NCBI GenBank assembly: GCA_965208545.1
Contig: OZ242341.1
Location: 2,399,380-2,463,379 of the forward strand
Origin: Candidatus Poriferisocius sp.
GTDB taxonomy: Bacteria; Actinomycetota; Acidimicrobiia; Acidimicrobiales; Bin134
DNA: 64,000 nt
Direction: 5' to 3'
Shown: piece by piece, positions 3,944 through 32,698 of the stretch
Layout of the letters: every line of letters begins with the position of its first letter
How positions within the stretch are numbered: position 1 is the stretch's first letter
The notes under the pieces: model-generated
What the model was told of the DNA's origin: nothing
What the model saw: only the letters and a program-made list of their open reading frames with translations
Database searches by the model: none
Program-made: the position numbers and the translations under genes

Positions 3944-3969
3944 GCAGGGCTGCCACAGCGGCAGCCTGC
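3944..3969 (-). terminator. Imperfect GC hairpin downstream of the flavodoxin-like gene
   Basis: gcagggctgcc-acagc-ggcagcctgc forms a stem of about 10 bp with one bulge. No clear U-tract follows on the minus strand. Confidence 0.25.
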
Positions 3970-3980
3970 TGGCATAAGGG

Positions 3981-4439
3981 TCAGTAGATCCCCAGTTCCA
4001 AACCGGCGGCCAGGGTCATGCCCAATTCCCGGCAGGCCTCCAAGTGGTCGTCGGTCAGCTCGCCTGTGGCCACCACCGGCGGAGCCACCGCCTTCCACCC
4101 CAACCCGGTGACCAGAGGCTCCACCGCCCGCACCGCACCGGTGCCGTCGTTGCCGGCCCGCACGAACAGGCCATAGGGCCGGCCTCGGGTGTGGTCCAAG
4201 CAGTCGTAGTACACGGTGTCGAAGAAGTGCTTGAGGGCGCCGCTCATGTAGCCGAAGTTCTCCGGGGTGCCCAGCAGGTAGCCGTCGGCGGCCATCACAT
4301 CGTCCGGGGTGGCATCGAGCGCAGCCACCTCCAACACTTCCACACCATCGATGTCGGGATGGCTGGCCCCGGCCACCACCGCCTCGGTCATGGCTTTGGT
4401 ACCGCCGGTCTTGGAGTGGGACACCACCAGCACTCGCAT
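3981..4439 (-). CDS. Flavodoxin-like fold / NAD(P)H-dependent FMN reductase family protein
   Basis: The sequence MRVLVVSHSKTGGTKAM...ADGYLLGTPENFGYMSGALKHFFD matches the flavodoxin-like FMN-binding pattern. Confidence 0.7.
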   Translation of the reverse strand: MRVLVVSHSKTGGTKAMTEAVVAGASHPDIDGVEVLEVAALDATPDDVMAADGYLLGTPENFGYMSGALKHFFDTVYYDCLDHTRGRPYGLFVRAGNDGTGAVRAVEPLVTGLGWKAVAPPVVATGELTDDHLEACRELGMTLAAGLELGIY

Positions 4440-5796: not shown

Positions 5797-6102
5797 ATGC
5801 CTGTGAACCCAGTCGAAATCAACATGACCCCATCGCATCCGGGCGATTTCGTTCGCACTGAGATCATCGAGGAACTCAGTCTGAGCGTTTCGAAAGCGGC
5901 CGAGATCTTGGGGGTCCGCCGAGCAACCCTGTCCGACTTGTTGAACGGCAATGCCGCCCTATCAGCAGAAATGGCACTCCGTCTTGAGAAGGCTTTCGAC
6001 GTAAGCATGGAGATGCTCCTGCGGATGCAGGCCTGGTACGACGCGGCGATGATGCGAGCCCGAGCTGACGAGGTCGATGTCAAACGATACGAGCCCGTGT
6101 AG
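5797..6102 (+). CDS. higA: HigA-family antitoxin-like XRE HTH protein (no partner toxin seen)
   Basis: This is the C-terminal 101 codons of track ORF 5035..6102, starting at ATG 5797. HPGDFVRTEIIEELSLSVSKAAEILGVRRATLSDLLNGNAALSAEMALRLEKAF matches the HigA antidote family pattern. Confidence 0.75.
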   Translation: MPVNPVEINMTPSHPGDFVRTEIIEELSLSVSKAAEILGVRRATLSDLLNGNAALSAEMALRLEKAFDVSMEMLLRMQAWYDAAMMRARADEVDVKRYEPV

Positions 6103-6255
6103 CCGTGAAGATGAAGATCGGAGAGCCGGATGCCCACCGCGAGGGCAGACTCACACTCTCGGGGTGACCAGCGCTATTTCCGCTGACCTAGTGTCAAAAA
6201 CCGTGCATGCATGGTCTGCTCCGAGCGGCAACACGGCCGCGTTTGGAGAGCGGCC

Positions 6256-7185
6256 GTGACGACGGTGGTCGAACTCGACCGCGTTTCGAAATCGTTTGGG
6301 GACCAGTCGGTCTTGCGGGAGCTCTCGTTTTCCATCGAGCGGGGTGAGATCTTCTGCCTGCTTGGACCGAACGGTGCGGGCAAAACCACCACTTTGGAGA
6401 TCCTCGAGGGATTCCTCGAACCTGATTCCGGATCGGTCCAAGTCCTCGGGTGTGATCCACTCACATCTGGTGAAACGCTCCGACCGAGCGTGGGGGTTGT
6501 GCTGCAAGAGAGCGGGTTCCCGAAATTCTTTCGGGTGGGAGAGATGATCGACACCTGGCGGTCCTACTACGACGATCCGCTGCCTTACGACGATATTCTC
6601 GACCTTGTCGATCTGCGTAGCGACGAGGCGAAGTTGGTACGAAAACTCTCCGGGGGGCAGCGTCGCCGACTCGATTTCGCACTGGCGGTTGCCGGCGACC
6701 CGGAAGTCATCTTCCTTGACGAGCCGACCACGGGCTTCGACCCAGAGGCGAGGGCGCGCTGTTGGGAAGCCATCGCCAGTCTGCGAGAACTAGGCAAGAC
6801 CATACTGCTGACCACCCACTATCTAGACGAGGCCGAACGCCTTGGTGATCGAATTGCAGTGCTCTTGGACGGCGCGGCCGGAGCGATCGGCAGCACCCAG
6901 GAACTGGCTCAGCTAGCCAATCTGGGGGTGACGGTCTCGTTCCAGACGACGGCCGAAGTTGCTGAGGAGCTTGCTCGCGAGTTCCCCGGGCTCAATGCAG
7001 CCGACGAGTCTGTGGACGGCCAGATCGACAATGTCCGCGCCCTCACTCGTCGACTCGAATTGCTCGACGATCACGCGTCGCAGCGGGCATTTGCCAGTCT
7101 CCGAGTTCAGCCTCCGAGCCTTGAGCAGGCCTACCTCTCGCTGGTCGGCAGGCAATCGCTCCCGACAGATTCGAGATCGCAATGA
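6256..7185 (+). CDS. ABC transporter ATP-binding protein (ABC-2/DrrA-like exporter type)
   Basis: It has Walker A GPNGAGKTT, signature LSGGQRRRL and Walker B IFLDEPTTGFD. I prefer the GTG at 6256 (VTTVVELDRVSKSF) as the start. The track ORF begins at 6211. Confidence 0.85.
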   Translation: MTTVVELDRVSKSFGDQSVLRELSFSIERGEIFCLLGPNGAGKTTTLEILEGFLEPDSGSVQVLGCDPLTSGETLRPSVGVVLQESGFPKFFRVGEMIDTWRSYYDDPLPYDDILDLVDLRSDEAKLVRKLSGGQRRRLDFALAVAGDPEVIFLDEPTTGFDPEARARCWEAIASLRELGKTILLTTHYLDEAERLGDRIAVLLDGAAGAIGSTQELAQLANLGVTVSFQTTAEVAEELAREFPGLNAADESVDGQIDNVRALTRRLELLDDHASQRAFASLRVQPPSLEQAYLSLVGRQSLPTDSRSQ

Positions 7186-23352: not shown

Positions 23353-25782
23353 ATGACACTCATACAGGAGCCACTGGCCGCCGTAAGCACGAATGGGACC
23401 GATGCCGAACAGAACGGAGACCATGCCGCCAGCGCGACCGGGATGCGGGTGCGCAAGCGCAACGGCGAGCTGGAGCCGGTAGACGTCAACAAGATCGTCA
23501 ACGCGGTAGCCCGCTGCGCCGAGGGACTGGTGGGCGTCGACCCGATGCGGGTGGCCACTCGGACCATCTCCGCCCTGGCCGACGGGGCCACCACCCGAGA
23601 GCTCGACGAGCTATCCATCCGCACCGCGGCCGGGCTGATCGTCACCGAGCCCAACTACTCCAAACTGGCCGCCCGGCTCCTGTCCACCTGCATCGACAAA
23701 GAGGTCCGCAACCAGAACATCCCCTGGTTCACCGAGTCGATCAAGACCGGTCACAGCCTGGACCTGATCAGCGATGAGACTCTCGACTTCGCCGAGAAGT
23801 ACGCCCCCGCGCTGAACGCCTCCATCAGCTCGCTGCGCGACCGGAACTTCGAGTTCTTCGGCCTGCGCACGGTGTACGACCGCTATCTGCTGCGCCATCC
23901 CGACACCCGCCAGGTCATCGAAACCCCTCAATACTTCTTCTTGCGGGTGGCTTGCGGCCTCTCGGCCGACGCCGATGAGGCCATCGCCTTCTACGACCTG
24001 ATGAGCTCGCTGGCTTACCTCCCGTCGAGCCCGACGCTGTTCAACTCCGGTACCGCCCACCCGCAGATGTCGTCGTGCTACCTGCTCGACTCCCCCGAAG
24101 ACAGCCTCGAGGGCATCTACCAGCGCTACACCGACATTGCCCGGCTCTCCAAGTTCGCCGGCGGCATTGGCGTGGCCTGGCACCGCATCCGCTCCAAGGG
24201 ATCGCTCATCAAAGGCACCAACGGCCTGTCCAACGGCATCGTGCCATGGCTAAAGACCCTGGACAGCTCGGTAGCCGCCGTCAACCAGGGGGGCAAGCGC
24301 AAGGGCGCGGCCTGCGTGTACCTGGAGACTTGGCACGCCGACATCGAGGACTTCTTGGAGCTCAAGGAGAACACCGGCGACCACAACCGCCGAGCCCACA
24401 ATCTCAATCTGGCCAACTGGGTACCCGACCTGTTCATGGAGCGAGTGGAACAGGACTGGCAGTGGTCGCTGTTTGACCCCAAGAAGGTCCCCCACTTCAC
24501 CGACCTCTATGGGGATGAGTTCCGGGAGGCTTATGCAGAAGCCGAGGCTGCCGGGCTGTACGAGCGCCAGCTCCCCGCCCGCCAGCTCTACAGCCGCATG
24601 ATGCGGTGCCTGGCCCAGACTGGCAACGGCTGGATGACCTTCAAAGACGCCTCCAATCTGCGGTGCAATCAAACCGGCCAAGAAGGCCGCACCGTACACC
24701 TGTCCAACCTGTGCACCGAGATCATCGAAGTCACCAGCGCCGATGAGACCGCAGTATGCAACCTGGGGTCGGTCAACCTGGGAGCGTTTGTCGACACCGA
24801 CACCGGCACAATGGACTTCGACCGGCTTGGGAGCGTGGTCCGCTCCGTGGTGCCCTTCTTGGACCGGGTAATCGACATCAACTTCTACCCCACCTCCGAG
24901 GCGGCCAACTCCAACGCCAAGTGGCGCCCGGTGGGCCTGGGCCTGATGGGCCTCCAAGACGTGTTCTTCCACTTGGCCATGCCCTTTGACAGCGACGAGG
25001 CCCGCCGGCTGTCGGCCCGCATCTCCGAGGAGATCTATTTCAACGCCTTGTGGGCCTCTACCGAGCTCGCCGAGAAGCACGGACCCCACTTAGCGTTCCC
25101 CGAAACCCGGGCGGCCAGCGGCCAGCTCCAGTTCGACCTGTGGGGCAAGGAGTCCTCCGATCCAGCCCGGTGGCAAACGCTGCGCGATCGCATCGCCGAG
25201 CACGGACTGCGCAATTCCCTGCTCATCGCCATCGCCCCCACCGCCACCATCGCCTCCATCGCCGGGTGCTTCGAGTGCATCGAGCCCCAGGTGTCCAATC
25301 TGTTCAAGCGGGAGACCCTCTCCGGCGAGTTCTTGCAGATCAACCGCTACCTGGTAAGCGACCTCCAGGAGCTGGGCCTGTGGGACGACCAGATGATCGC
25401 TGATGTCAAGCGGTCCGAGGGCTCGGTGGCCGACATCGAGCGCATCCCCGACAGCCTCAAGGCGGTGTACCGCACCGCGTGGGAGCTCCCCCAGCGCTCG
25501 CTCATCGACATGGCCGCCGACCGAGGGGCATTCATCGACCAGTCCCAGTCGCTGAACCTGTTCATGGAGTCGCCCACCATCGGCAAGCTCAGCTCCATGT
25601 ACTCGCACGCTTGGAAATCAGGGCTGAAAACCACCTACTACCTGAGATCCCGGCCAGCCACCCGGATCAACCAGACCACCACCGGCGGCACACCCACAGC
25701 CCCTGTCTCTGCTCCGGTAACCGATGCTGAGGCGGTGGCCTGCTCCCTGGAAAACCCCGAGACCTGTGAGGCATGCGAATAA
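23353..25782 (+). CDS. nrdA: Ribonucleoside-diphosphate reductase alpha subunit, class Ia (with N-terminal ATP-cone)
   Basis: ATG 23353 is preceded by gaggggggatcg. RVRKRNGELEPVDVNKIVNAVARCAEGL resembles the E. coli NrdA ATP-cone. It also has the catalytic NLCTEI and a C-terminal CxxC-like tail (CSLENPETCEACE). Confidence 0.9.
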   Translation: MTLIQEPLAAVSTNGTDAEQNGDHAASATGMRVRKRNGELEPVDVNKIVNAVARCAEGLVGVDPMRVATRTISALADGATTRELDELSIRTAAGLIVTEPNYSKLAARLLSTCIDKEVRNQNIPWFTESIKTGHSLDLISDETLDFAEKYAPALNASISSLRDRNFEFFGLRTVYDRYLLRHPDTRQVIETPQYFFLRVACGLSADADEAIAFYDLMSSLAYLPSSPTLFNSGTAHPQMSSCYLLDSPEDSLEGIYQRYTDIARLSKFAGGIGVAWHRIRSKGSLIKGTNGLSNGIVPWLKTLDSSVAAVNQGGKRKGAACVYLETWHADIEDFLELKENTGDHNRRAHNLNLANWVPDLFMERVEQDWQWSLFDPKKVPHFTDLYGDEFREAYAEAEAAGLYERQLPARQLYSRMMRCLAQTGNGWMTFKDASNLRCNQTGQEGRTVHLSNLCTEIIEVTSADETAVCNLGSVNLGAFVDTDTGTMDFDRLGSVVRSVVPFLDRVIDINFYPTSEAANSNAKWRPVGLGLMGLQDVFFHLAMPFDSDEARRLSARISEEIYFNALWASTELAEKHGPHLAFPETRAASGQLQFDLWGKESSDPARWQTLRDRIAEHGLRNSLLIAIAPTATIASIAGCFECIEPQVSNLFKRETLSGEFLQINRYLVSDLQELGLWDDQMIADVKRSEGSVADIERIPDSLKAVYRTAWELPQRSLIDMAADRGAFIDQSQSLNLFMESPTIGKLSSMYSHAWKSGLKTTYYLRSRPATRINQTTTGGTPTAPVSAPVTDAEAVACSLENPETCEACE

Positions 25783-26879
25783 TGGCTCTGGCAGAAACCC
25801 CGTTTATTGAAGAGGACCTGGGTCTCAACCCGTCACCAGAATCGTCGCCTCCGGCACCTGAGGCGACTCCAGCCCTAGGGCGGATCCTTGATCCCGGCTT
25901 CAAGCTGACACTGCGCCCCATGCGATATCCGCAGTTCTTTGACATGTACCGCGACGCCATCAAGAACACCTGGACGGTGGATGAGATCGACTTCTCCGAC
26001 GACCTGGTCGACTTGGAGCGCACCCTTCTCCCCGCGGAGAAGCACCTGGTGAATCGGCTGGTGGCCTTCTTCGCCACCGGTGACTCCATCGTGGCCAACA
26101 ACCTTGTGCTGAACCTCTACAAGCACGTCAACGCCCCCGAGGCCCGGATGTACCTGTCCCGTCAGCTCTACGAGGAGGCGCTGCACGTCCAGTTCTACCT
26201 GACCCTGCTCGACAACTACATCCCCGACCTCGACGAGCGGGAGGCCGCGTTCGCCGCCATCGACAACATTCCCTCCATCCGCAAAAAGGCCGAGTTCTGC
26301 TTCCGGTGGATGAACTCGATGGATGACATCGACCAGTGCGACACCCCTCAGCAGCGCCGTCAGTTCTTGTTGAATTTGATCTGCTTCGCCACCTGCATCG
26401 AGGGGCTGTTCTTCTTCGCCGCCTTCGCCTATGTGTACTTCTTGCGATCCAAAGGGCTGTTGAACGGGCTAGCCGCGGGCACCAATTGGGTGTTCCGCGA
26501 CGAGAGCTGTCACATGAACTTCGCCCTCGAGGTGGTGAACACCGTACGGGCCGAGGAACCCGAGCTGTTCGACGCCGAGCTCAGCGAGCAGGTCACTACC
26601 ATGATCTGCGAGGCAGTCGACTGCGAGTACCAATTCGCCGAGGATCTGCTAGGCCAGGGCGTGCCTGGCATGTCGGTGGCCGACACCCGCCGCTACTTGG
26701 AATTCGTGGCCGACCAGCGCCTCAGCCAATTGGGTCTTCCCAAGCAGTTCGGTGCCAAGAACCCGTTCTCGTTCATGGAACTCCAAGATGTGCAGGAGCT
26801 GACCAACTTCTTCGAGCGCACCGTGGCCTCCTACCAAGTGGGTGTAGAGGGCGACGTCGCCTTCGACGAGGACTTCTAA
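25773..26879 (+). CDS. nrdB: Ribonucleoside-diphosphate reductase beta subunit (class Ia, radical Tyr present)
   Basis: EEALHVQFY places Tyr four residues after the ligand His, as in E. coli R2. It also has RDESCHMNF. The start is ATG 25773 (10-nt overlap with nrdA) or ATG 25782 (TAATG overlap). Confidence 0.9.
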   Translation: MRIMALAETPFIEEDLGLNPSPESSPPAPEATPALGRILDPGFKLTLRPMRYPQFFDMYRDAIKNTWTVDEIDFSDDLVDLERTLLPAEKHLVNRLVAFFATGDSIVANNLVLNLYKHVNAPEARMYLSRQLYEEALHVQFYLTLLDNYIPDLDEREAAFAAIDNIPSIRKKAEFCFRWMNSMDDIDQCDTPQQRRQFLLNLICFATCIEGLFFFAAFAYVYFLRSKGLLNGLAAGTNWVFRDESCHMNFALEVVNTVRAEEPELFDAELSEQVTTMICEAVDCEYQFAEDLLGQGVPGMSVADTRRYLEFVADQRLSQLGLPKQFGAKNPFSFMELQDVQELTNFFERTVASYQVGVEGDVAFDEDF

Positions 26880-26934: not shown

Positions 26935-27055
26935 GTTGGCCGGACGCGCTGCGCCCCTGGGCCGGAGGGGGGCAGCCCAGGGGCGCACTTACCCCGTTGA
27001 GGGATCTTCTACAAGGCTACGGGTACCGTGAGGATTCCGGGTGGATGCTGTAGGT
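26935..27055 (-). repeat. Copy A of a roughly 120-bp duplicated module: last 13 codons of the kinase gene, spacer, and terminator hairpin
   Basis: Compared with 29036-29155, the first 36 nt differ at 1 position, the hairpin arms are identical, and the last 25 nt (aggattccgggtggatgctgtaggt) differ at 1 position. Confidence 0.85.
26950..26987. terminator. Strong GC hairpin between convergent nrdB and the histidine kinase gene
   Basis: tgcgcccctgggc ... gcccaggggcgca forms a 13-bp stem with a 12-nt loop. It is positioned to terminate both convergent transcripts. Confidence 0.55.
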
Positions 27056-28261
27056 GGTGGCATTGAGGGTTACTTCGAAGCGGGCACCGCCGAGCTCGGC
27101 GGAATCGCCCACCTGAATGGCGCCCCGGTGGCGATCGACGATGGCCTTGACGAGGGCGAGGCCAATGCCAATACCGCCGGTTTCTCTGGCTCGGCTGCTA
27201 TCGAGGCGAACGAAGCGTTCAAAGATGCGATCACGGTCTTCAGAGCTGATTCCCGGTCCGTCGTCCTCAACCGCGATCAAGACTTTGGTGTCCTCAGCCG
27301 TCACAGTTACCACCACGCGACCCGCGGCATGGATGACTGCGTTGTCCACCAGATTGATCACTACCTGCTCGATCTGCGAGGCCACGCCATCGGCTCGCGC
27401 CACTGCCGGGCAATTCAATGAGATTGCGGACACTTCCTCTTCGAAACGATCAACCGCGTCACGGCACACCGCGGCAACATCAACCTCAGTGGTGTCGAGT
27501 TCCAAGCGATCCTCATCGAGCCGAGCGAGATCCAGCAGATTGGCAACCAGCAGCTGCATGCGCTGAGCCTCCCCCGACACCGTCTCGGCCAGCTTCTGGA
27601 GCTTGATTGGGTCGGGGCTGACCGACGCAATCTCGGCCGCCGCCACAATCGTCGACAGTGGGGAGCGAAGTTCATGGCTGGCGTCGGCGACGAATGCCCG
27701 CTGTCGCTCCGATGACGATTCCAGCCGGTCGAGCATCTCGTTCATCAGAGCAGCAAGCTTGGCGATCTCGTCTTCGCTAGCCGGCACCGGGACCCGCTCG
27801 TTGAGAGTAGAACCTGTGATTTCCGCGACCTGAGCAGAGATGTCTCGCACAGGACGCAAGGCTCGCCCCACTGTCCACCAAATGGCGAGACCGAGTGCCA
27901 CCACTACCACGGGCACGATGATCAGCAGCGCGTTTGACGCGGCGTCAACCCCGGCTTGCACTTCGCGGACGGAAGCATCGGCCAAGGCGCGCTGCTGAGC
28001 ATCGCCGCTGGATCCGCCGTCGGTTGATCCTTCGCCGCCCTCGCCGGCTTCTCCGCTGCCGCCGTCGGTTGATCCTTCGCCGCTAACGGAATGGGATGCC
28101 GATTCCAACGCAGTGCTGAGCGCGCTTCTGGCGTTGTCCTCCAGATCGCGCTCCACCAGCTGGACTATGAAGTACGACGCCAAGCCCAACACGAGAGCCG
28201 TCAACAAGGTGGCGGCCACCGTGGTCCTCCACCGCACCGACCGCAGCCGGCCAAGCTTCAT
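27017..28261 (-). CDS. Two-component sensor histidine kinase (2 TM segments, HAMP, HisKA, HATPase_c)
   Basis: I trimmed the ORF to ATG 28261 (MKLGRLRSVRW...), which overlaps the regulator stop (ATGA). It has the H-box ADASHELRSPLS, the N box DNAVIHA, and the G boxes DDGPGI and GIGIGLALV. The terminal TTYSIHPESSRYP lies beyond the ATPase domain. Confidence 0.88.
   Translation of the reverse strand: MKLGRLRSVRWRTTVAATLLTALVLGLASYFIVQLVERDLEDNARSALSTALESASHSVSGEGSTDGGSGEAGEGGEGSTDGGSSGDAQQRALADASVREVQAGVDAASNALLIIVPVVVVALGLAIWWTVGRALRPVRDISAQVAEITGSTLNERVPVPASEDEIAKLAALMNEMLDRLESSSERQRAFVADASHELRSPLSTIVAAAEIASVSPDPIKLQKLAETVSGEAQRMQLLVANLLDLARLDEDRLELDTTEVDVAAVCRDAVDRFEEEVSAISLNCPAVARADGVASQIEQVVINLVDNAVIHAAGRVVVTVTAEDTKVLIAVEDDGPGISSEDRDRIFERFVRLDSSRARETGGIGIGLALVKAIVDRHRGAIQVGDSAELGGARFEVTLNATTYSIHPESSRYP
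28014..28083 (-). repeat. 25-nt perfect direct repeat with a 45-nt period, inside the kinase sensor loop
   Basis: ccgccgtcggttgatccttcgccgc occurs at 28014-28038 and 28059-28083. It encodes the duplicated GEGSTDGG. Confidence 0.85.
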
Positions 28262-28929
28262 GTCGCCACGACCCGGTAGCCGACTCCCCGCAGGTTCTTG
28301 ATGGTGCTCACGTCGAACGGTTCGTCGACCTTGCGCCGCAAATAGCGCACGTAAACCTCCACGATCTTGGGATCGACATCGGCGTCGATACCCCACACCC
28401 GATTGAATATCTCCAGCTTGGGCACCGGAGTGTCGCCCGCTCTCATCAGCACTTCGAGAACCTGCAACTCAGTGCGGGTCAGATCGATCACCGTCTCTCC
28501 CCGACGCACGGCCGATGAGGCGACATCGAACACCAGATCGCCCACCTGGAGCACGGCGGGTCGCTCGACCGAGGGACGGCGGGCCAGCGCTCGCAACCGA
28601 GCCAATAGCACGACGAATGAGAACGGCTTGGACAGATAGTCGTCGGCACCGGTGTCGAGGGCCTCGGCTTCGTCCCACTCCCCGTCCTTGGCCGTAAGCA
28701 TCAGAATCGGGGTCCAGATCTCGGCCTCGCGCAGTTTGCGGCAGATCTGGTAGCCGTTGAGCCCGGGCAGCATGATGTCCAACACGATCACGTCATAGCT
28801 GCCCACTTTGGCCCGAAACAGCCCTTCGCGGCCGTCGTGCTCGATGTCGGCAGTCACGCCGTGCTCGCTGAGCCCCTCGCGGATCGTCTCGGCCAGCCGC
28901 TCCTCGTCCTCCACCAGCAGAACGCGCAT
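28258..28929 (-). CDS. OmpR/PhoB-family response regulator
   Basis: It has MRVLLVEDEERL, VLDIMLPGLNG, LTAKD and SKPF, followed by a winged helix ending GVGYRV. Confidence 0.9.
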   Translation of the reverse strand: MRVLLVEDEERLAETIREGLSEHGVTADIEHDGREGLFRAKVGSYDVIVLDIMLPGLNGYQICRKLREAEIWTPILMLTAKDGEWDEAEALDTGADDYLSKPFSFVVLLARLRALARRPSVERPAVLQVGDLVFDVASSAVRRGETVIDLTRTELQVLEVLMRAGDTPVPKLEIFNRVWGIDADVDPKIVEVYVRYLRRKVDEPFDVSTIKNLRGVGYRVVAT

Positions 28930-29035
28930 AGGGTTACATCATCCCTCACGCTTGCGAGGCAGGCGCATCACAGTCCGCAGAAGCGCGTGCGTTTGTCGAC
29001 ATTGCGCCGCTCTGAGGAGCAGATGGTGCATGGGA

Positions 29036-29155
29036 GTTGGCCGGACGTGCTGCGCCCCTGGGCCGGAGGGGATAGACCCAGGGGCGCACATGCCCGGTTG
29101 CGGTTCCTTTCTCAAATCAGGGGCATGGGGAGGATTCGGGGTGGATGCTGTAGGT
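29036..29155 (-). repeat. Copy B of the roughly 120-bp duplicated module (end of the lipoprotein gene, spacer, and hairpin)
   Basis: See copy A. This copy overlaps the last 13 codons (DTYSIHPESSPCP) of the lipoprotein gene. Confidence 0.85.
29051..29088 (-). terminator. GC hairpin downstream of the lipoprotein gene
   Basis: The 12-bp arms tgcgcccctggg / cccaggggcgca are identical to those of the hairpin at 26950-26987. The loop differs. Confidence 0.55.
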
Positions 29156-30670
29156 ATCGGGAACCACCGGATCGGCTGAAAGCACCACATCGATGGACTC
29201 GCCCGGTCGCAGGTCGACGCCGATGGTGGGTCCTAGCTCGATGACCTGTCCCTGAGCGCCCATGTGGATCTCCAACCGGGAGGCGCACACCGTTTGGCTG
29301 GTGTTGTTGGTCACCGTCGCCTGAAAGGAGTTGGTGGCCCGGTCGTAGGCAACGCGGTAGTCCAGGTTGTTGAACGTGCCGGACACGGGCTGGCTAATGG
29401 GTGTAGACGGGCTAGTCTCCTCGCCGCCTTCGCCGCCGCCTTCGCTGCCGCCGCCTTCATGGCCCGCTCCTTCGCCGCCGCTCTCGTGGCCGGGGCCTTC
29501 GCCGCCGCTCTCGCTGCCGGATTCACCGCTGCCGCCTTCCGCGCCTTCGCCGGGGTGGCTGGCAACGGAGGTACAGGTGAAGGTCTCGGTTTCGGCTTGC
29601 CACGTGTTGAACCGGGATTGGGGCGCCTCAACGGTGAAGTCCGCTCGGCCCGCCACGTCCAAGGCGGGAATCAGCACGCTTTGCGAGCCGGCTCGGCCGT
29701 CGGCGATCACCTTGACCGACGTATTGCAGATCGGAACCGCGGCCTCGTTTTTCACCCGGGCCAAAAAGCGGTCGTTCTGCTCGTCGTAAGTGATGGCCAG
29801 CTCCAGGTCATTCAGATTCCCCGCATAGGACTCACCAATGACGAGCACCTGGGACGACTTGACTCCCCGGCTCACCCCAGAGCTGGTCAGGTAGGTAGCC
29901 GAGCCCGGCCCAGCCGCCTGGCGACCGGTTTCGGTCCCCTCGGGTCCCTCGCCGCGGCCTTCGCTGCCACCGCTTTCGTGGCCCGCACCCTCACTGCCCT
30001 CGCCGCCGGAGCCTTCACCGGCTTCGCCCGATCCGACTTCGACGTGGGCGCTCCAAGTGTCGAATGGAGCTGCCGTCGAAGGCAGTGTCAGGCGAAGGGA
30101 TTGGCCGGGTGGCAGATCGGTTGGCGTGGTAGGGCCAAGCTCAGTGCCGTTGGATAGGTGAACCTCCACTCGGACTCGGGTCAGAGTCTGGTTGGTGGTG
30201 TTCTCCGCCGTGCCCACGAAGGCGTTGGCCGCCGGATCGAAGGCCAGCTGGAGACGGGCGCCTCCGATGGTCTCGTCGTAGGTCTGGTCGGGTGTCAGCA
30301 GGGTGACGTTGCCGCCCTCGGCTGCTTCGCCGCGGCCAGCTTCGCCGCCGTGGCCGGCTTCCGCCGCTTCACCCATCCCGCCGCCTTCGCCGCTTCCTGA
30401 GTGTTCCCCGGCGCCTTCGGGGCCGGTTGATCCTTCGCGGCTTTCGCCCCCGCTCTCGTGGCCGGCACCCTCGCTGGCCTCAGCACCGCTTTCGTGGCCG
30501 GCACCTTCGCCGGACTCGCCGCTGGCGCACGCACCGGCAACGAGAGCAATCGACAGCACGACGGCGCCCGCCGCGGCGGCAACCCGCTTCTTTGATTTGC
30601 CGAAGAAACCGAGAATCTTGTTCTTGCCTTCTTGGGTCTCTTGATCTTCTGGTCTGGTTTCGATGGTCAT
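29117..30670 (-). CDS. Secreted lipoprotein with three homologous beta-rich domains separated by Gly/Glu/Ser/His low-complexity linkers; function unknown
   Basis: ATG 30670 is preceded by aaggag. It has a signal peptide with the lipobox-like LVAGAC. The linkers carry repeated EGAGHESGG. The three domains end FDTWSAHVE, FNTWQAETE and PDTYSIHPE. I recognise no known family. Confidence 0.75.
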   Translation of the reverse strand: MTIETRPEDQETQEGKNKILGFFGKSKKRVAAAAGAVVLSIALVAGACASGESGEGAGHESGAEASEGAGHESGGESREGSTGPEGAGEHSGSGEGGGMGEAAEAGHGGEAGRGEAAEGGNVTLLTPDQTYDETIGGARLQLAFDPAANAFVGTAENTTNQTLTRVRVEVHLSNGTELGPTTPTDLPPGQSLRLTLPSTAAPFDTWSAHVEVGSGEAGEGSGGEGSEGAGHESGGSEGRGEGPEGTETGRQAAGPGSATYLTSSGVSRGVKSSQVLVIGESYAGNLNDLELAITYDEQNDRFLARVKNEAAVPICNTSVKVIADGRAGSQSVLIPALDVAGRADFTVEAPQSRFNTWQAETETFTCTSVASHPGEGAEGGSGESGSESGGEGPGHESGGEGAGHEGGGSEGGGEGGEETSPSTPISQPVSGTFNNLDYRVAYDRATNSFQATVTNNTSQTVCASRLEIHMGAQGQVIELGPTIGVDLRPGESIDVVLSADPVVPDTYSIHPESSPCP

Positions 30671-30774
30671 TTTCCATCTCCTTTGATGTGACCGGTTCTG
30701 CTCCTCACAGAACCTGATGGTCACAGTGTGCCGAGGAGATGGTTAAAGGAAGGTTGGAATGCGGAGCACTTTAA

Positions 30775-30791
30775 CCCTGCTTTAAGCAGGG
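30775..30791 (-). terminator. Small hairpin downstream of dnaG
   Basis: ccctgc-tttaa-gcaggg is a 6-bp stem. On the minus strand it is followed by ttaaag. This is a weak candidate. Confidence 0.25.
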
Positions 30792-30829: not shown

Positions 30830-32698
30830 CTAGGTCCCAGGTCGCAACATCTCTAGGAGGATGCGAGCCTGTTCGGCCTCCCACTCCGATTCCCGGAGCT
30901 GGTCCATGGATGTCTTCAAGCTGGCCACCCGGCGCAGCAGCTCCTCGTCGGCTGAGCCGGTACGGGCTTGGCGCTCCAGGTAGGCCAACTCCCGCTGGGC
31001 CTCCTCATACAACAAGATGGCCATCACAACGTCCTGTCGATGGCGACTCGTCCGCAGCTCCTCGTCCTCATCCACCACCAGCTCCCGCATGAGCTCTGTC
31101 ACCCTTGGGTCTGCCTCAGCCAGCAGCGTGTCCATATCGGGGTATTCCAGCAGAGCCTCGAATACCCCCCGATAGAGAGGATGGTGGAATAGCTCGGGAC
31201 CGATCTCCGGCCACACCCCATCGGGCTCGTTGGCCGCCAGCCACAGCACTTGGCGCTCCACGTTGTTGGGAGGAGGGCTCTCATTGGCCCCATCGCCTTC
31301 GAATTCCGCGTAGTCGCCACGGTAGCCACTGGACTCATGCACTGCGTCAGCCGGGTGGGGGGCGTCTTCCGCCGCGGGTCGGGATGCCCGGCGCGGGCCG
31401 CGGCGGCGAGCATCGGCTGCCACGTTCCGCAGGTGGTCGGCGTTCACCGAGCAGCGGTCAGCTACCTCCACCAAGTACTTGTCCCGGATCTCCGGGTTGG
31501 GGTGCTCGGACACCAGACGGGCGGCCCTTTCCCCCGCTCGGACCTGGCCCTTGACCGTCGATAGGTCGGCCTCGCCCAATACCCGGTTGATGCGGAAGTC
31601 CATGAAGTCCACCGCATCAGAGACCGCGGCCGCCAGCCGCTCCGGATCGTTCTGGGCCAAATCGCCGGGATCAGCCCCGGGAGGCAGGTCGGCCACCGCC
31701 ACCTCCAGTTCGAAGGCGTGCTCCCACTGAGAGAATCGCTCGGCCGCGGTCTGACCAGCGGAGTCCGCGTCGAAGGCCAGCACGATGCGGGGGGCGAACC
31801 GGCGTAGCACCCGAACGTGGTCCTCGGTTAGGGCGGTTCCGCAGGTAGCCACCGCTCGGGCGATGCCGGCCTGGGCGAATCCGATCACGTCGGTGTAGCC
31901 CTCGCACACAATCACCTCACTGGCGTTCACTATGTCCTGTTTGGCCCAATTGAGCCCGTACAACACCCGGGACTTGCGGTAGACGGCGTTGTCCACCGAG
32001 TTCTTGTATTTGGGACCGTCCCCGCCGGGAAGCACCCGTCCGCCGAAGCCCACCGGCTTGCCGCTGGGATCGAAGATGGGAAACAGCAGGCGGGCCCGGA
32101 AGCTGTCCTGGATGCGCCCGCCCTTGTTGCGGAATCCCAGGCCGGCGTCGGAGAAAACCTGCGCCGCCATTCCCTTGTCGGTGCCCACCCCGAGGTCGGC
32201 TGCCAGCGCATCCCAGTCATCGGGGGCCCATCCCAGTTTGTACTGGCGCACCACGTCGCCGTCGTAGCCCCGGTGGCGGAGATAGCCCCGGGCCGGGCCG
32301 GCATCGGCCGCAGTCAGCAGACGCTGGTGATACCACTCAACCGCCTGCTCCAGGGCCTCGGTGAGCTTGCCCCGCTTCTGGCGGTCGGCCCCCTCACCAG
32401 GAGCGGTGTAGCGAAGGGCAATCCCCGCCCGCCCAGCCAGTCGCTCCACCGCCTCGGGAAAGTCGGCGTGCTCCACCTCCCGAAGGAAGGTGATGGCGTC
32501 GCCGCTGGCCTTGCAGCCGAAGCAGTGGTACACGCCCATCTCGGCGTTAACCGAGAAAGACGGGGTCTTCTCGGCATGGAAAGGGCACAGCCCCTGCCAG
32601 CGGCGCCCCACCCGTTTCAGCTGAACGTATTCGCTGATGACCGCGACGATGTCCGTCGCCTCTCTCACCCGGGCCACGTCTTCGTCGTGGATGCCCAC
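30830..32698 (-). CDS. dnaG: DNA primase
   Basis: It has the zinc ribbon CPFHAEKTPSFSVN...YHCFGCKASGD, the Toprim motif VCEGYTDV, and AFDADSAG. The start is GTG. Confidence 0.93.
   Translation of the reverse strand: MGIHDEDVARVREATDIVAVISEYVQLKRVGRRWQGLCPFHAEKTPSFSVNAEMGVYHCFGCKASGDAITFLREVEHADFPEAVERLAGRAGIALRYTAPGEGADRQKRGKLTEALEQAVEWYHQRLLTAADAGPARGYLRHRGYDGDVVRQYKLGWAPDDWDALAADLGVGTDKGMAAQVFSDAGLGFRNKGGRIQDSFRARLLFPIFDPSGKPVGFGGRVLPGGDGPKYKNSVDNAVYRKSRVLYGLNWAKQDIVNASEVIVCEGYTDVIGFAQAGIARAVATCGTALTEDHVRVLRRFAPRIVLAFDADSAGQTAAERFSQWEHAFELEVAVADLPPGADPGDLAQNDPERLAAAVSDAVDFMDFRINRVLGEADLSTVKGQVRAGERAARLVSEHPNPEIRDKYLVEVADRCSVNADHLRNVAADARRRGPRRASRPAAEDAPHPADAVHESSGYRGDYAEFEGDGANESPPPNNVERQVLWLAANEPDGVWPEIGPELFHHPLYRGVFEALLEYPDMDTLLAEADPRVTELMRELVVDEDEELRTSRHRQDVVMAILLYEEAQRELAYLERQARTGSADEELLRRVASLKTSMDQLRESEWEAEQARILLEMLRPGT

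Follow-up and report, generated by a model that had tools for sequence, protein, structure and literature searches.

The two-component locus and its repeated gene end

This study concerns a histidine kinase gene with an odd 3′ end, located in a 64,000-nucleotide stretch of a Candidatus Poriferisocius sp. genome (assembly GCA_965208545.1, contig OZ242341.1, positions 2,399,380 to 2,463,379 of the forward strand; termed the window), and the origin of the C-terminal tail and hairpin that this gene shares with a neighbouring lipoprotein gene. The genes of the locus are arranged on the minus strand in the order dnaG (30830-32698), lipoA, encoding the lipoprotein (29117-30670), a gene for an OmpR family response regulator (RR; 28258-28929) and the gene for the sensor histidine kinase (HK; 27017-28261), and are followed by nrdB (25773-26879), which is convergent on the plus strand. 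The RR stop codon overlaps the kinase start codon (ATGA). The kinase contains HAMP, HisKA and HATPase_c domains, and the HATPase_c match covers residues 293-401 of 414, leaving beyond it a tail with the sequence TYSIHPESSRYP (27020-27055, minus strand) that terminates at a TAG codon (27017-27019). The kinase C terminus reads ..RFEVTLNATTYSIHPESSRYP (also written ..FEVTLNATTYSIHPESSRYP, up to the stop codon), and that of the lipoprotein reads ..PDTYSIHPESSPCP (also written ..VVPDTYSIHPESSPCP, again up to the stop codon). The lipoprotein has a signal peptide and a lipobox, followed by three β-sandwich domains with His/Glu/Gly linkers, of which the two internal domains end FDTWSAHVE and FNTWQAETE. 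Family searches with the lipoprotein returned only a match to the FxLYD domain (E = 9e-9), and a literature search for FxLYD or Poriferisodalis returned no papers.

The two similar C termini lie within direct repeats that flank the RR/kinase pair on both sides. The kinase-side copy (copy B, 26935-27055, minus strand) and the native lipoA 3′ end (copy A, 29036-29155, minus strand) are ~80% identical, and align as two blocks around a diverged middle, with 85% identity over 68 nt (26935-27002 versus 29036-29103) and 86% identity over 35 nt (27021-27055 versus 29121-29155). The first 36 nt contain one mismatch, as do the last 25 nt. Both copies comprise the final 12 sense codons of a minus-strand gene with its stop, a 3′ untranslated region (UTR) and a hairpin, and copy B extends ~15 nt beyond the hairpin. 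A first-pass annotation, made from the sequence of the window, had described repeats with single-mismatch ends, identical 12-nt hairpin arms and a diverged middle, together with the protein C termini and internal domain ends given above, and all of these were borne out by alignment. Its statement that each copy covers the last 13 codons of a gene was right as to the gene end and is corrected here to 12 sense codons plus the stop. The same annotation had called for a count of the copies. When the whole 3.6-Mb genome was searched by BLAST, the second copy was recovered with E = 4.8e-23 and there was no other match below E = 0.2, while a profile hidden Markov model built from 13 related copies recognized only these two repeats in the genome, with E = 4e-32 for one and 2.6e-31 for the other against E = 2.2 for the next best match. 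The element is thus local and present in two copies.

Hairpin B (26950-26987, minus strand), a 15-bp G+C-rich stem, is situated between the convergent kinase and nrdB genes, and hairpin A (29051-29088, minus strand) is situated between lipoA and the RR gene; the arms tgcgcccctggg (26950/29051) and cccaggggcgca (26976/29077) are the same in both. For the 95-96-nt stretches containing the hairpins, the predicted folding energy was close to -45 kcal/mol (z = -3.1 and -3.9), the B stretch (96 nt) giving -45.4 kcal/mol at z = -3.1. Across 14 copies from seven genomes, standard pairs occupied 97.6% of pair cells, compared to 27-52% when the partner was slid. Covariation was modest, with an observed score that was reached by 29 of 500 shuffles; five pairs varied on one side only, mostly to wobble pairs, and one change was compensatory (C-G to U-A in G001_B and G020_B, the kinase-side copies of two related genomes). 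No Rfam family matched the hairpin at E <= 1.

These data point to a conserved 3′ end structure, which may act as a terminator or as an RNA-stabilizing stem. There is no U-tract after the stem, which is followed by GCGCGUCCGGCCAAC, and a terminator consensus scan gave no site there; according to a published report, the RNA polymerase of mycobacteria requires such a tract (PMC3993855). A canonical intrinsic terminator was accordingly rejected, since a G+C-rich hairpin just past the stop codon is present and a U-tract is not. The arrangement resembles the hairpin-only, U-tract-less 3′ ends of high-G+C Actinobacteria, which have been proposed as noncanonical terminators and are disputed (PMC3993855), in having a 15-bp G+C-rich stem right after the stop codon with pairing kept across the 14 copies. 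It differs in that it is known here from sequence alone and in that the A copy is deleted in one relative. In that relative (L065:5291-5333) the lipoA-side hairpin and most of the lipoA-RR spacer are gone and 38 nt are left, and so at least that copy of the hairpin is dispensable. In this case lipoA, RR and kinase are probably cotranscribed.

A second lipoprotein gene in related loci

The locus was compared with its counterparts in sponge-associated Acidimicrobiia. Eleven loci were available, seven from genomes of the genus (the window genome being G000) and four from metagenome contigs, and all of the compared genomes are metagenome assemblies. Kinase orthologues with 73-92% identity were found in 6 of the 40 same-genus genomes searched, and lipoprotein homologues in 6 of 39. 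Every locus with both kinase and lipoprotein genes sits between dnaG and nrdB, and the common layout of the 11 loci is dnaG - lipoA - RR - HK - lipoB - nrdB, with nrdB convergent and a second lipoprotein gene, lipoB, downstream of the kinase. An intact lipoB lies directly 3′ of the kinase in G001, G020, G015, G043 and the metagenome contig L067. G001 and G020 have a full three-domain lipoB there and only remnants of the upstream lipoprotein gene, while G015 and G043 have lipoprotein genes on both sides of RR-HK. The window genome, G003 and G041 have lipoA and no lipoB, and it is the kinases of these three genomes that carry the tail. The kinase of L067 is the closest to that of the window (92% identity), and in this contig lipoB, encoding 356 amino acids, is still present.

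Where lipoB is kept, the kinases end ..TLPAAKTPA, ..TLPAAETPA, ..TLPAAKAPA or ..TLKAAESPA, in each case directly before the stop codon. A more distant orthologue or outgroup kinase, in G011, lies in another context without a lipoprotein neighbour and ends ..TLPTAP before its stop. In the comparison of kinase orthologues that the first-pass annotation had advised, those without the fusion lack the tail, and the observation that it had named as damaging to its proposal, a tail on kinases without the lipoprotein, was not made in G011. In a collection of 5.8 billion proteins, 6 of the 120 best kinase homologues were tailed, all at >=86% identity, and the majority of the 120 had the native short C terminus. 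Further tailed sequences were present among the 90%-cluster members of those six kinases.

Alignment of all the 3′ modules revealed that the sequence lying between stop codon and hairpin sorts by gene position, whichever genome it comes from. In G000, G003 and G041 the kinase-side copy reads TAGCCT..TAG.AGATCCCTCAAC.GGGTAAG, a signature that matches the true lipoB ends of G015, L067 and, with few changes, G043, while the lipoA ends all read TGAT.TGAGAAAGGAACCGCAACCGGGCATG or near variants. The window copy is 85% identical to the lipoB end of G015, 83% to that of G043, and 90% and 91% to the kinase-side copies of G003 and G041, compared to 77% for the lipoA end of the same genome. Maximum-likelihood analysis placed the kinase-side copies in one cluster with the lipoB ends of G015 and G043 (support 98/96). 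The lipoB gene of L067 ends ..ACC TAC AGC ATC CAC CCG GAA TCC TCA CCG TGC CCG TAG CCTGATAGAAGATCCCTCAAC, which is nearly base-for-base equal to the kinase tail of G003. No match to the B-type signature of the 3′ UTR turned up when JGI metagenome contigs were scanned. The B-specific stretch and the L067 lipoB end together identify the tail as a remnant of lipoB in its original place, and not as a copy of lipoA: the kinase-side copy is the orthologue of the lipoB 3′ end.

The extent of the homology between lipoA and lipoB places the repeat within a larger unit. The homology starts ~125 nt upstream of the ATG, at the palindrome CCCTGCTTAAAGCAGGG (gene sense; window 30775-30791), continues through the inverted repeat GGTTAAAG/CTTTAACC, and ends ~15 nt beyond the hairpin at ..GGCCAAC. 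These limits show that the near-identical outer 36 nt of the repeat form the 3′ boundary of a ~1.8-kb unit that was duplicated long ago. Its 5′ edge in the window (30741-30791, minus strand) holds the inverted repeat and the palindrome CCCTGCTTTAAGCAGGG; relatives have this block ahead of lipoB as well, and here the B side has lost it. In the intact loci the kinase stop codon, TAA, falls within the loop of the B-side palindrome. Palindrome and inverted repeat, which may together serve the duplicated unit as an operator or a promoter, are conserved ahead of both genes.

The junctions of a probable deletion and competing explanations

The junction could be defined by comparison with the parental sequences. 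The parental kinase genes end ..GCC GCC GAA TCC CCT GCT TAA (L067) and ..GCG GCC AAA ACC CCT GCT TAA (G001), and the parental lipoB end includes ..CCC GAT ACC TAC AGC.... In the window the junction (marked by a slash) reads ..GCC ACC/ACC TAC AGC, and in G003 it reads ..GCC GCC/ACC TAC AGC. The missing DNA amounts to 1,159 nt relative to L067, to 706-724 nt relative to G015 and G043, in which lipoB has one domain, and to 1,564 nt relative to G001 and G020. Microhomology at this junction is 1-2 nt at most, and Smith-Waterman scores between the breakpoint regions of four intact loci were no better than those of shuffled sequences, for which reason a homology-driven deletion was rejected. The two observations together point to illegitimate recombination.

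The best-supported interpretation of these data is that the ancestral locus had paralogous units, lipoA and lipoB, flanking the two-component pair in the order dnaG - lipoA - RR - HK - lipoB - nrdB, each unit starting with a promoter palindrome and closing with a hairpin after the gene. An illegitimate deletion would then have taken the end of the kinase gene (the last four codons and the stop) together with the spacer, the promoter of lipoB and almost the whole of lipoB itself, after which the kinase would be read in frame through the last 12 codons of lipoB to the lipoB stop codon, 3′ UTR and hairpin. The retained hairpin may still end or stabilize the RR-HK transcript and separate it from the convergent nrdB. 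The 120-bp repeat thus very probably consists of the 3′ ends of two old paralogues, and on one side the rest of the gene is gone, copy B and the 12 codons of the kinase tail being the deletion relic of lipoB. Each of the three traces looked for was found, namely an intact orthologue in place, a relic nearer to its orthologues than to its paralogue, and a definable junction with parental sequences. As a kind of feature this is a known one, an ordinary deletion scar. It resembles other remnants left when a neighbouring gene is deleted, such as pseudogene stubs or C termini replaced through reading into the frame of the neighbour, in that an intact orthologue lies at the same position in relatives, in that the stub keeps its frame, stop codon and 3′ UTR, and in that the junction lacks homology, as in illegitimate recombination. 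It differs in that the stub is in frame and apparently translated as part of a working kinase, and in that sister lineages show a further junction slightly unlike this one.

Several points weigh against this explanation. The second junction class has near-equal breakpoints, which is not expected from one random deletion. Both junction types and the intact L067 fall in one seven-member clade whose branching order lacks resolution, and the population is a mosaic. That lipoB was lost and not gained is concluded from its distribution, from parsimony and from the reasoning that a stub of 12 codons cannot grow back into a gene.

The two junction classes were compared directly. Type 1 (..T[LF][QN][AT][AT]/TYSIHPES..) was found in the window, G003, G041 and many NCBI proteins from metagenome-assembled genomes (MAGs), and type 2 (..TLKAA[EK]SP/SIHPES..; DNA GAATCCCC/CAGCATC) in L065, L066 and L069, one form being ..AAESP/SIHPESSPCP; each class accounts for three of the six tailed kinases noted above. 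The breakpoints of the two types are 8-9 nt apart on the kinase side and 5-6 nt apart on the lipoB side, and parental bases absent from one type are kept in the other, both ways round, which means that neither type comes from the other by simple deletion. In a simulation on L067, a coincidence this close was only a few percent likely under uniform breakpoints. Endpoint pairs giving a tail of <=15 amino acids before the hairpin made up 16.7% of those simulated and were spread along lipoB, so a constraint on tail length is insufficient by itself as the cause of the coincidence.

Two readings of the second class can be given. There may have been two independent deletions, with the viable endpoints perhaps narrowed by the kinase fold, by removal of the lipoB promoter and by retention of the hairpin. 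Alternatively, one deletion through CCC microhomology may have given an out-of-frame intermediate, from which 11-nt and 8-nt deletions each restored the lipoB frame; this hypothetical intermediate, with kinase ..GAATCCCC joined to GATACCTACAGC.., was unseen among the sequences. Between G041 (type 1) and L069 (type 2), identity is 96-100% over RR and most of the kinase and falls to ~86% in the last 340 nt. Sliding-window identity between the RR-kinase regions of G041 (L046) and L069 was observed to switch between 86% and 100% within the one locus, a pattern that indicates frequent homologous recombination among these symbiont strains.

The tail peptide itself was considered in the context of the lipoprotein domain. 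An alignment of domain copies, including the single-domain homologues of Dehalococcoidia and Latescibacterota, showed that D-T-[WYF]-x-x-H is nearly invariant at every domain end, with a Glu two residues further on (D-T-[WYF]-x-x-H-x-E). Domain 3 of the lipoprotein was modelled by AlphaFold as a β-sandwich (pLDDT 91.9), the last strand of which (residues 89-98, TYSIHPESSP) is the 12-residue kinase peptide minus its final C-P. A fold search with domain 3 gave generic β-sandwich matches only, the best being SadB (E = 8.6e-4, query TM-score 0.62). The Cys of SPCP falls in line with the second Cys of domain 2, and a partner Cys occurs in each of the two domains at one shared column further upstream, making a disulfide likely. 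On a cytoplasmic kinase, the same peptide is an orphan strand with an orphan Cys. In the window the tail has already changed by P->R and C->Y substitutions (SRYP), with loss of both Pro and Cys. The first-pass annotation had raised the idea that the two proteins share a C-terminal recognition or degradation tag. Such a tag would have to be free and accessible in one compartment in both proteins, and by predicted topology the kinase end is cytoplasmic while the lipoprotein is exported, where the peptide is the terminal β-strand of a folded domain. The different predicted compartments, the orphan strand and Cys and the decay of the window tail argue against a shared tag, which is unlikely. The kinase tail is probably functionally neutral.

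The explanation that best survives beside the deletion relic is one in which the (S)IHPESSPCP peptide, or reading in the lipoB frame, is of use to the kinase, perhaps by supplying a His/Cys ligand for metal or a peptide for partner recognition, and was captured or restored more than once. The two junction classes share the frame and the last 10 residues, with breakpoints within 9 nt and 6 nt, in regions that offer no homology to account for so close a coincidence, and across the tails there are ~3 nonsynonymous versus 3-4 synonymous changes. However, these counts are too small for rejecting neutrality, the window's own tail has lost the Pro and Cys, the peptide would be a buried terminal strand with a probable disulfide Cys taken out of an exported domain, and native short-ended kinases are the majority. 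Selection for the tail in this sense is judged distinctly unlikely. Its more specific form, in which the kinase repeatedly captured the last β-strand and His/Cys peptide of the lipoprotein through two near-coincident deletions or two frame-restoring secondary deletions, with reading in the lipoB frame selected, is unlikely too.

The first-pass annotation had proposed that the kinase gene received the 3′ end of the upstream lipoprotein gene, terminator included, by recombination or gene conversion. The two copies do lie in the same genome, 2.1 kb apart, with identical hairpin arms and a single difference in the first 26 coding nt, as a recent transplant would lead one to expect. However, a gene-conversion tract should leave copies within a genome more alike than orthologous copies, and the opposite was found, since identity between A and B in the window (77%) is below that between the relic and the orthologous B-side ends (83-91%) and the tree splits A from B at 98/96. 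The relic also carries the B-specific 3′ UTR signature, and the intact donor gene is seen in place downstream of the kinase in relatives. The derivation of tail and hairpin from a lipoprotein gene end thus stands, the motif being native to the domain family, while the donor was lipoB and not lipoA; a recent transplant is very improbable.

The remaining explanations carry next to no weight. A dispersed REP-like, MITE-like or mobile element placed at two gene ends by chance, suggested by the G+C-rich palindromic unit right after both stop codons, is ruled out for practical purposes by the two copies in 3.6 Mb, the lack of an Rfam match, the continuation of the repeat into coding sequence and the synteny of both copies in relatives. 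An assembly collapse between two lipoprotein repeats, removing lipoB in silico, might be suspected of a repetitive locus in a metagenome-assembled genome and is hardly credible, given that the junction joins unrelated sequences and not repeat to repeat, and that the same junction with diverged flanks occurs in the independent assemblies G003 and G041 and in at least 12 deposited NCBI protein records, apparently from different MAGs.

Plasticity of the cassette and meaning of the probable scar

Other traces of change were observed at the locus. In G001 (L043, gene-sense 3964-4236) there is a mirror-image scar, in which ~30 N-terminal codons of lipoA are joined to the gene's own 3′ UTR and hairpin, with an AAGAAGG/AAAGG-like microhomology at the junction, and in G020 lipoA is a 112-amino acid stub. 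The scar in the window is one of several at a deletion-prone locus. Depending on the genome, lipoA and lipoB encode one, two or three β-sandwich domains, with a Cys pair at aligned columns in domain 2 and again in domain 3, and the variation in domain number probably arose via recombination between the repeated domains and their Gly/Glu/His linkers. The extracytoplasmic loop of the kinase (window 27960-28110) is an acidic Gly/Glu/Ser/Asp repeat that resembles the lipoprotein linkers and shows up as repeat families D2-D4.

The closest groups to the regulator and kinase are CusR/CopR and CusS/CopS, respectively. Their best NCBIfam matches were TIGR01386, to which the kinase scored 207.2 bits against a curated cut-off of 292.55, and TIGR01387 (213 versus 279 bits), and these are to be read as best-matching families only. 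The locus is like the CusRS/CopRS heavy-metal two-component systems, which have adjacent periplasmic metal-binding proteins, in these matches and in the His/Glu-rich linkers of the flanking lipoproteins. It differs in the scores, which are below the curated cut-offs, and in the lipoprotein domain, an uncharacterized β-sandwich with weak fold matches. Homologues of the lipoprotein domain were also present in Dehalococcoidia and Latescibacterota MAGs (L053; L055-L064 around 6001-6550). In L053 (3832-7185) a 480-amino acid homologue (56% identity, ending PDTFSLHPESSPCP) is divergent from an RR (70%) and a kinase (54%) that belong to the same type, which suggests that several phyla have the cassette in common, possibly among sponge symbionts.

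No special function has to be invoked for the odd C terminus of the kinase or for the duplicated hairpin, since both record the loss of a paralogous lipoprotein gene. The main value of the finding is for annotation and for the reading of similar cases, as a natural example in which a deletion swaps the C terminus of a protein for that of its neighbour, whose stop codon and 3′ structure are retained. Only the second junction class might hold further interest for a specialist; if recurrent selected capture were true, it would be a small case of convergent uptake of a neighbour's C terminus by a signalling protein. The locus illustrates how domains and whole copies are gained and lost in a repetitive lipoprotein/two-component cassette of sponge symbionts.

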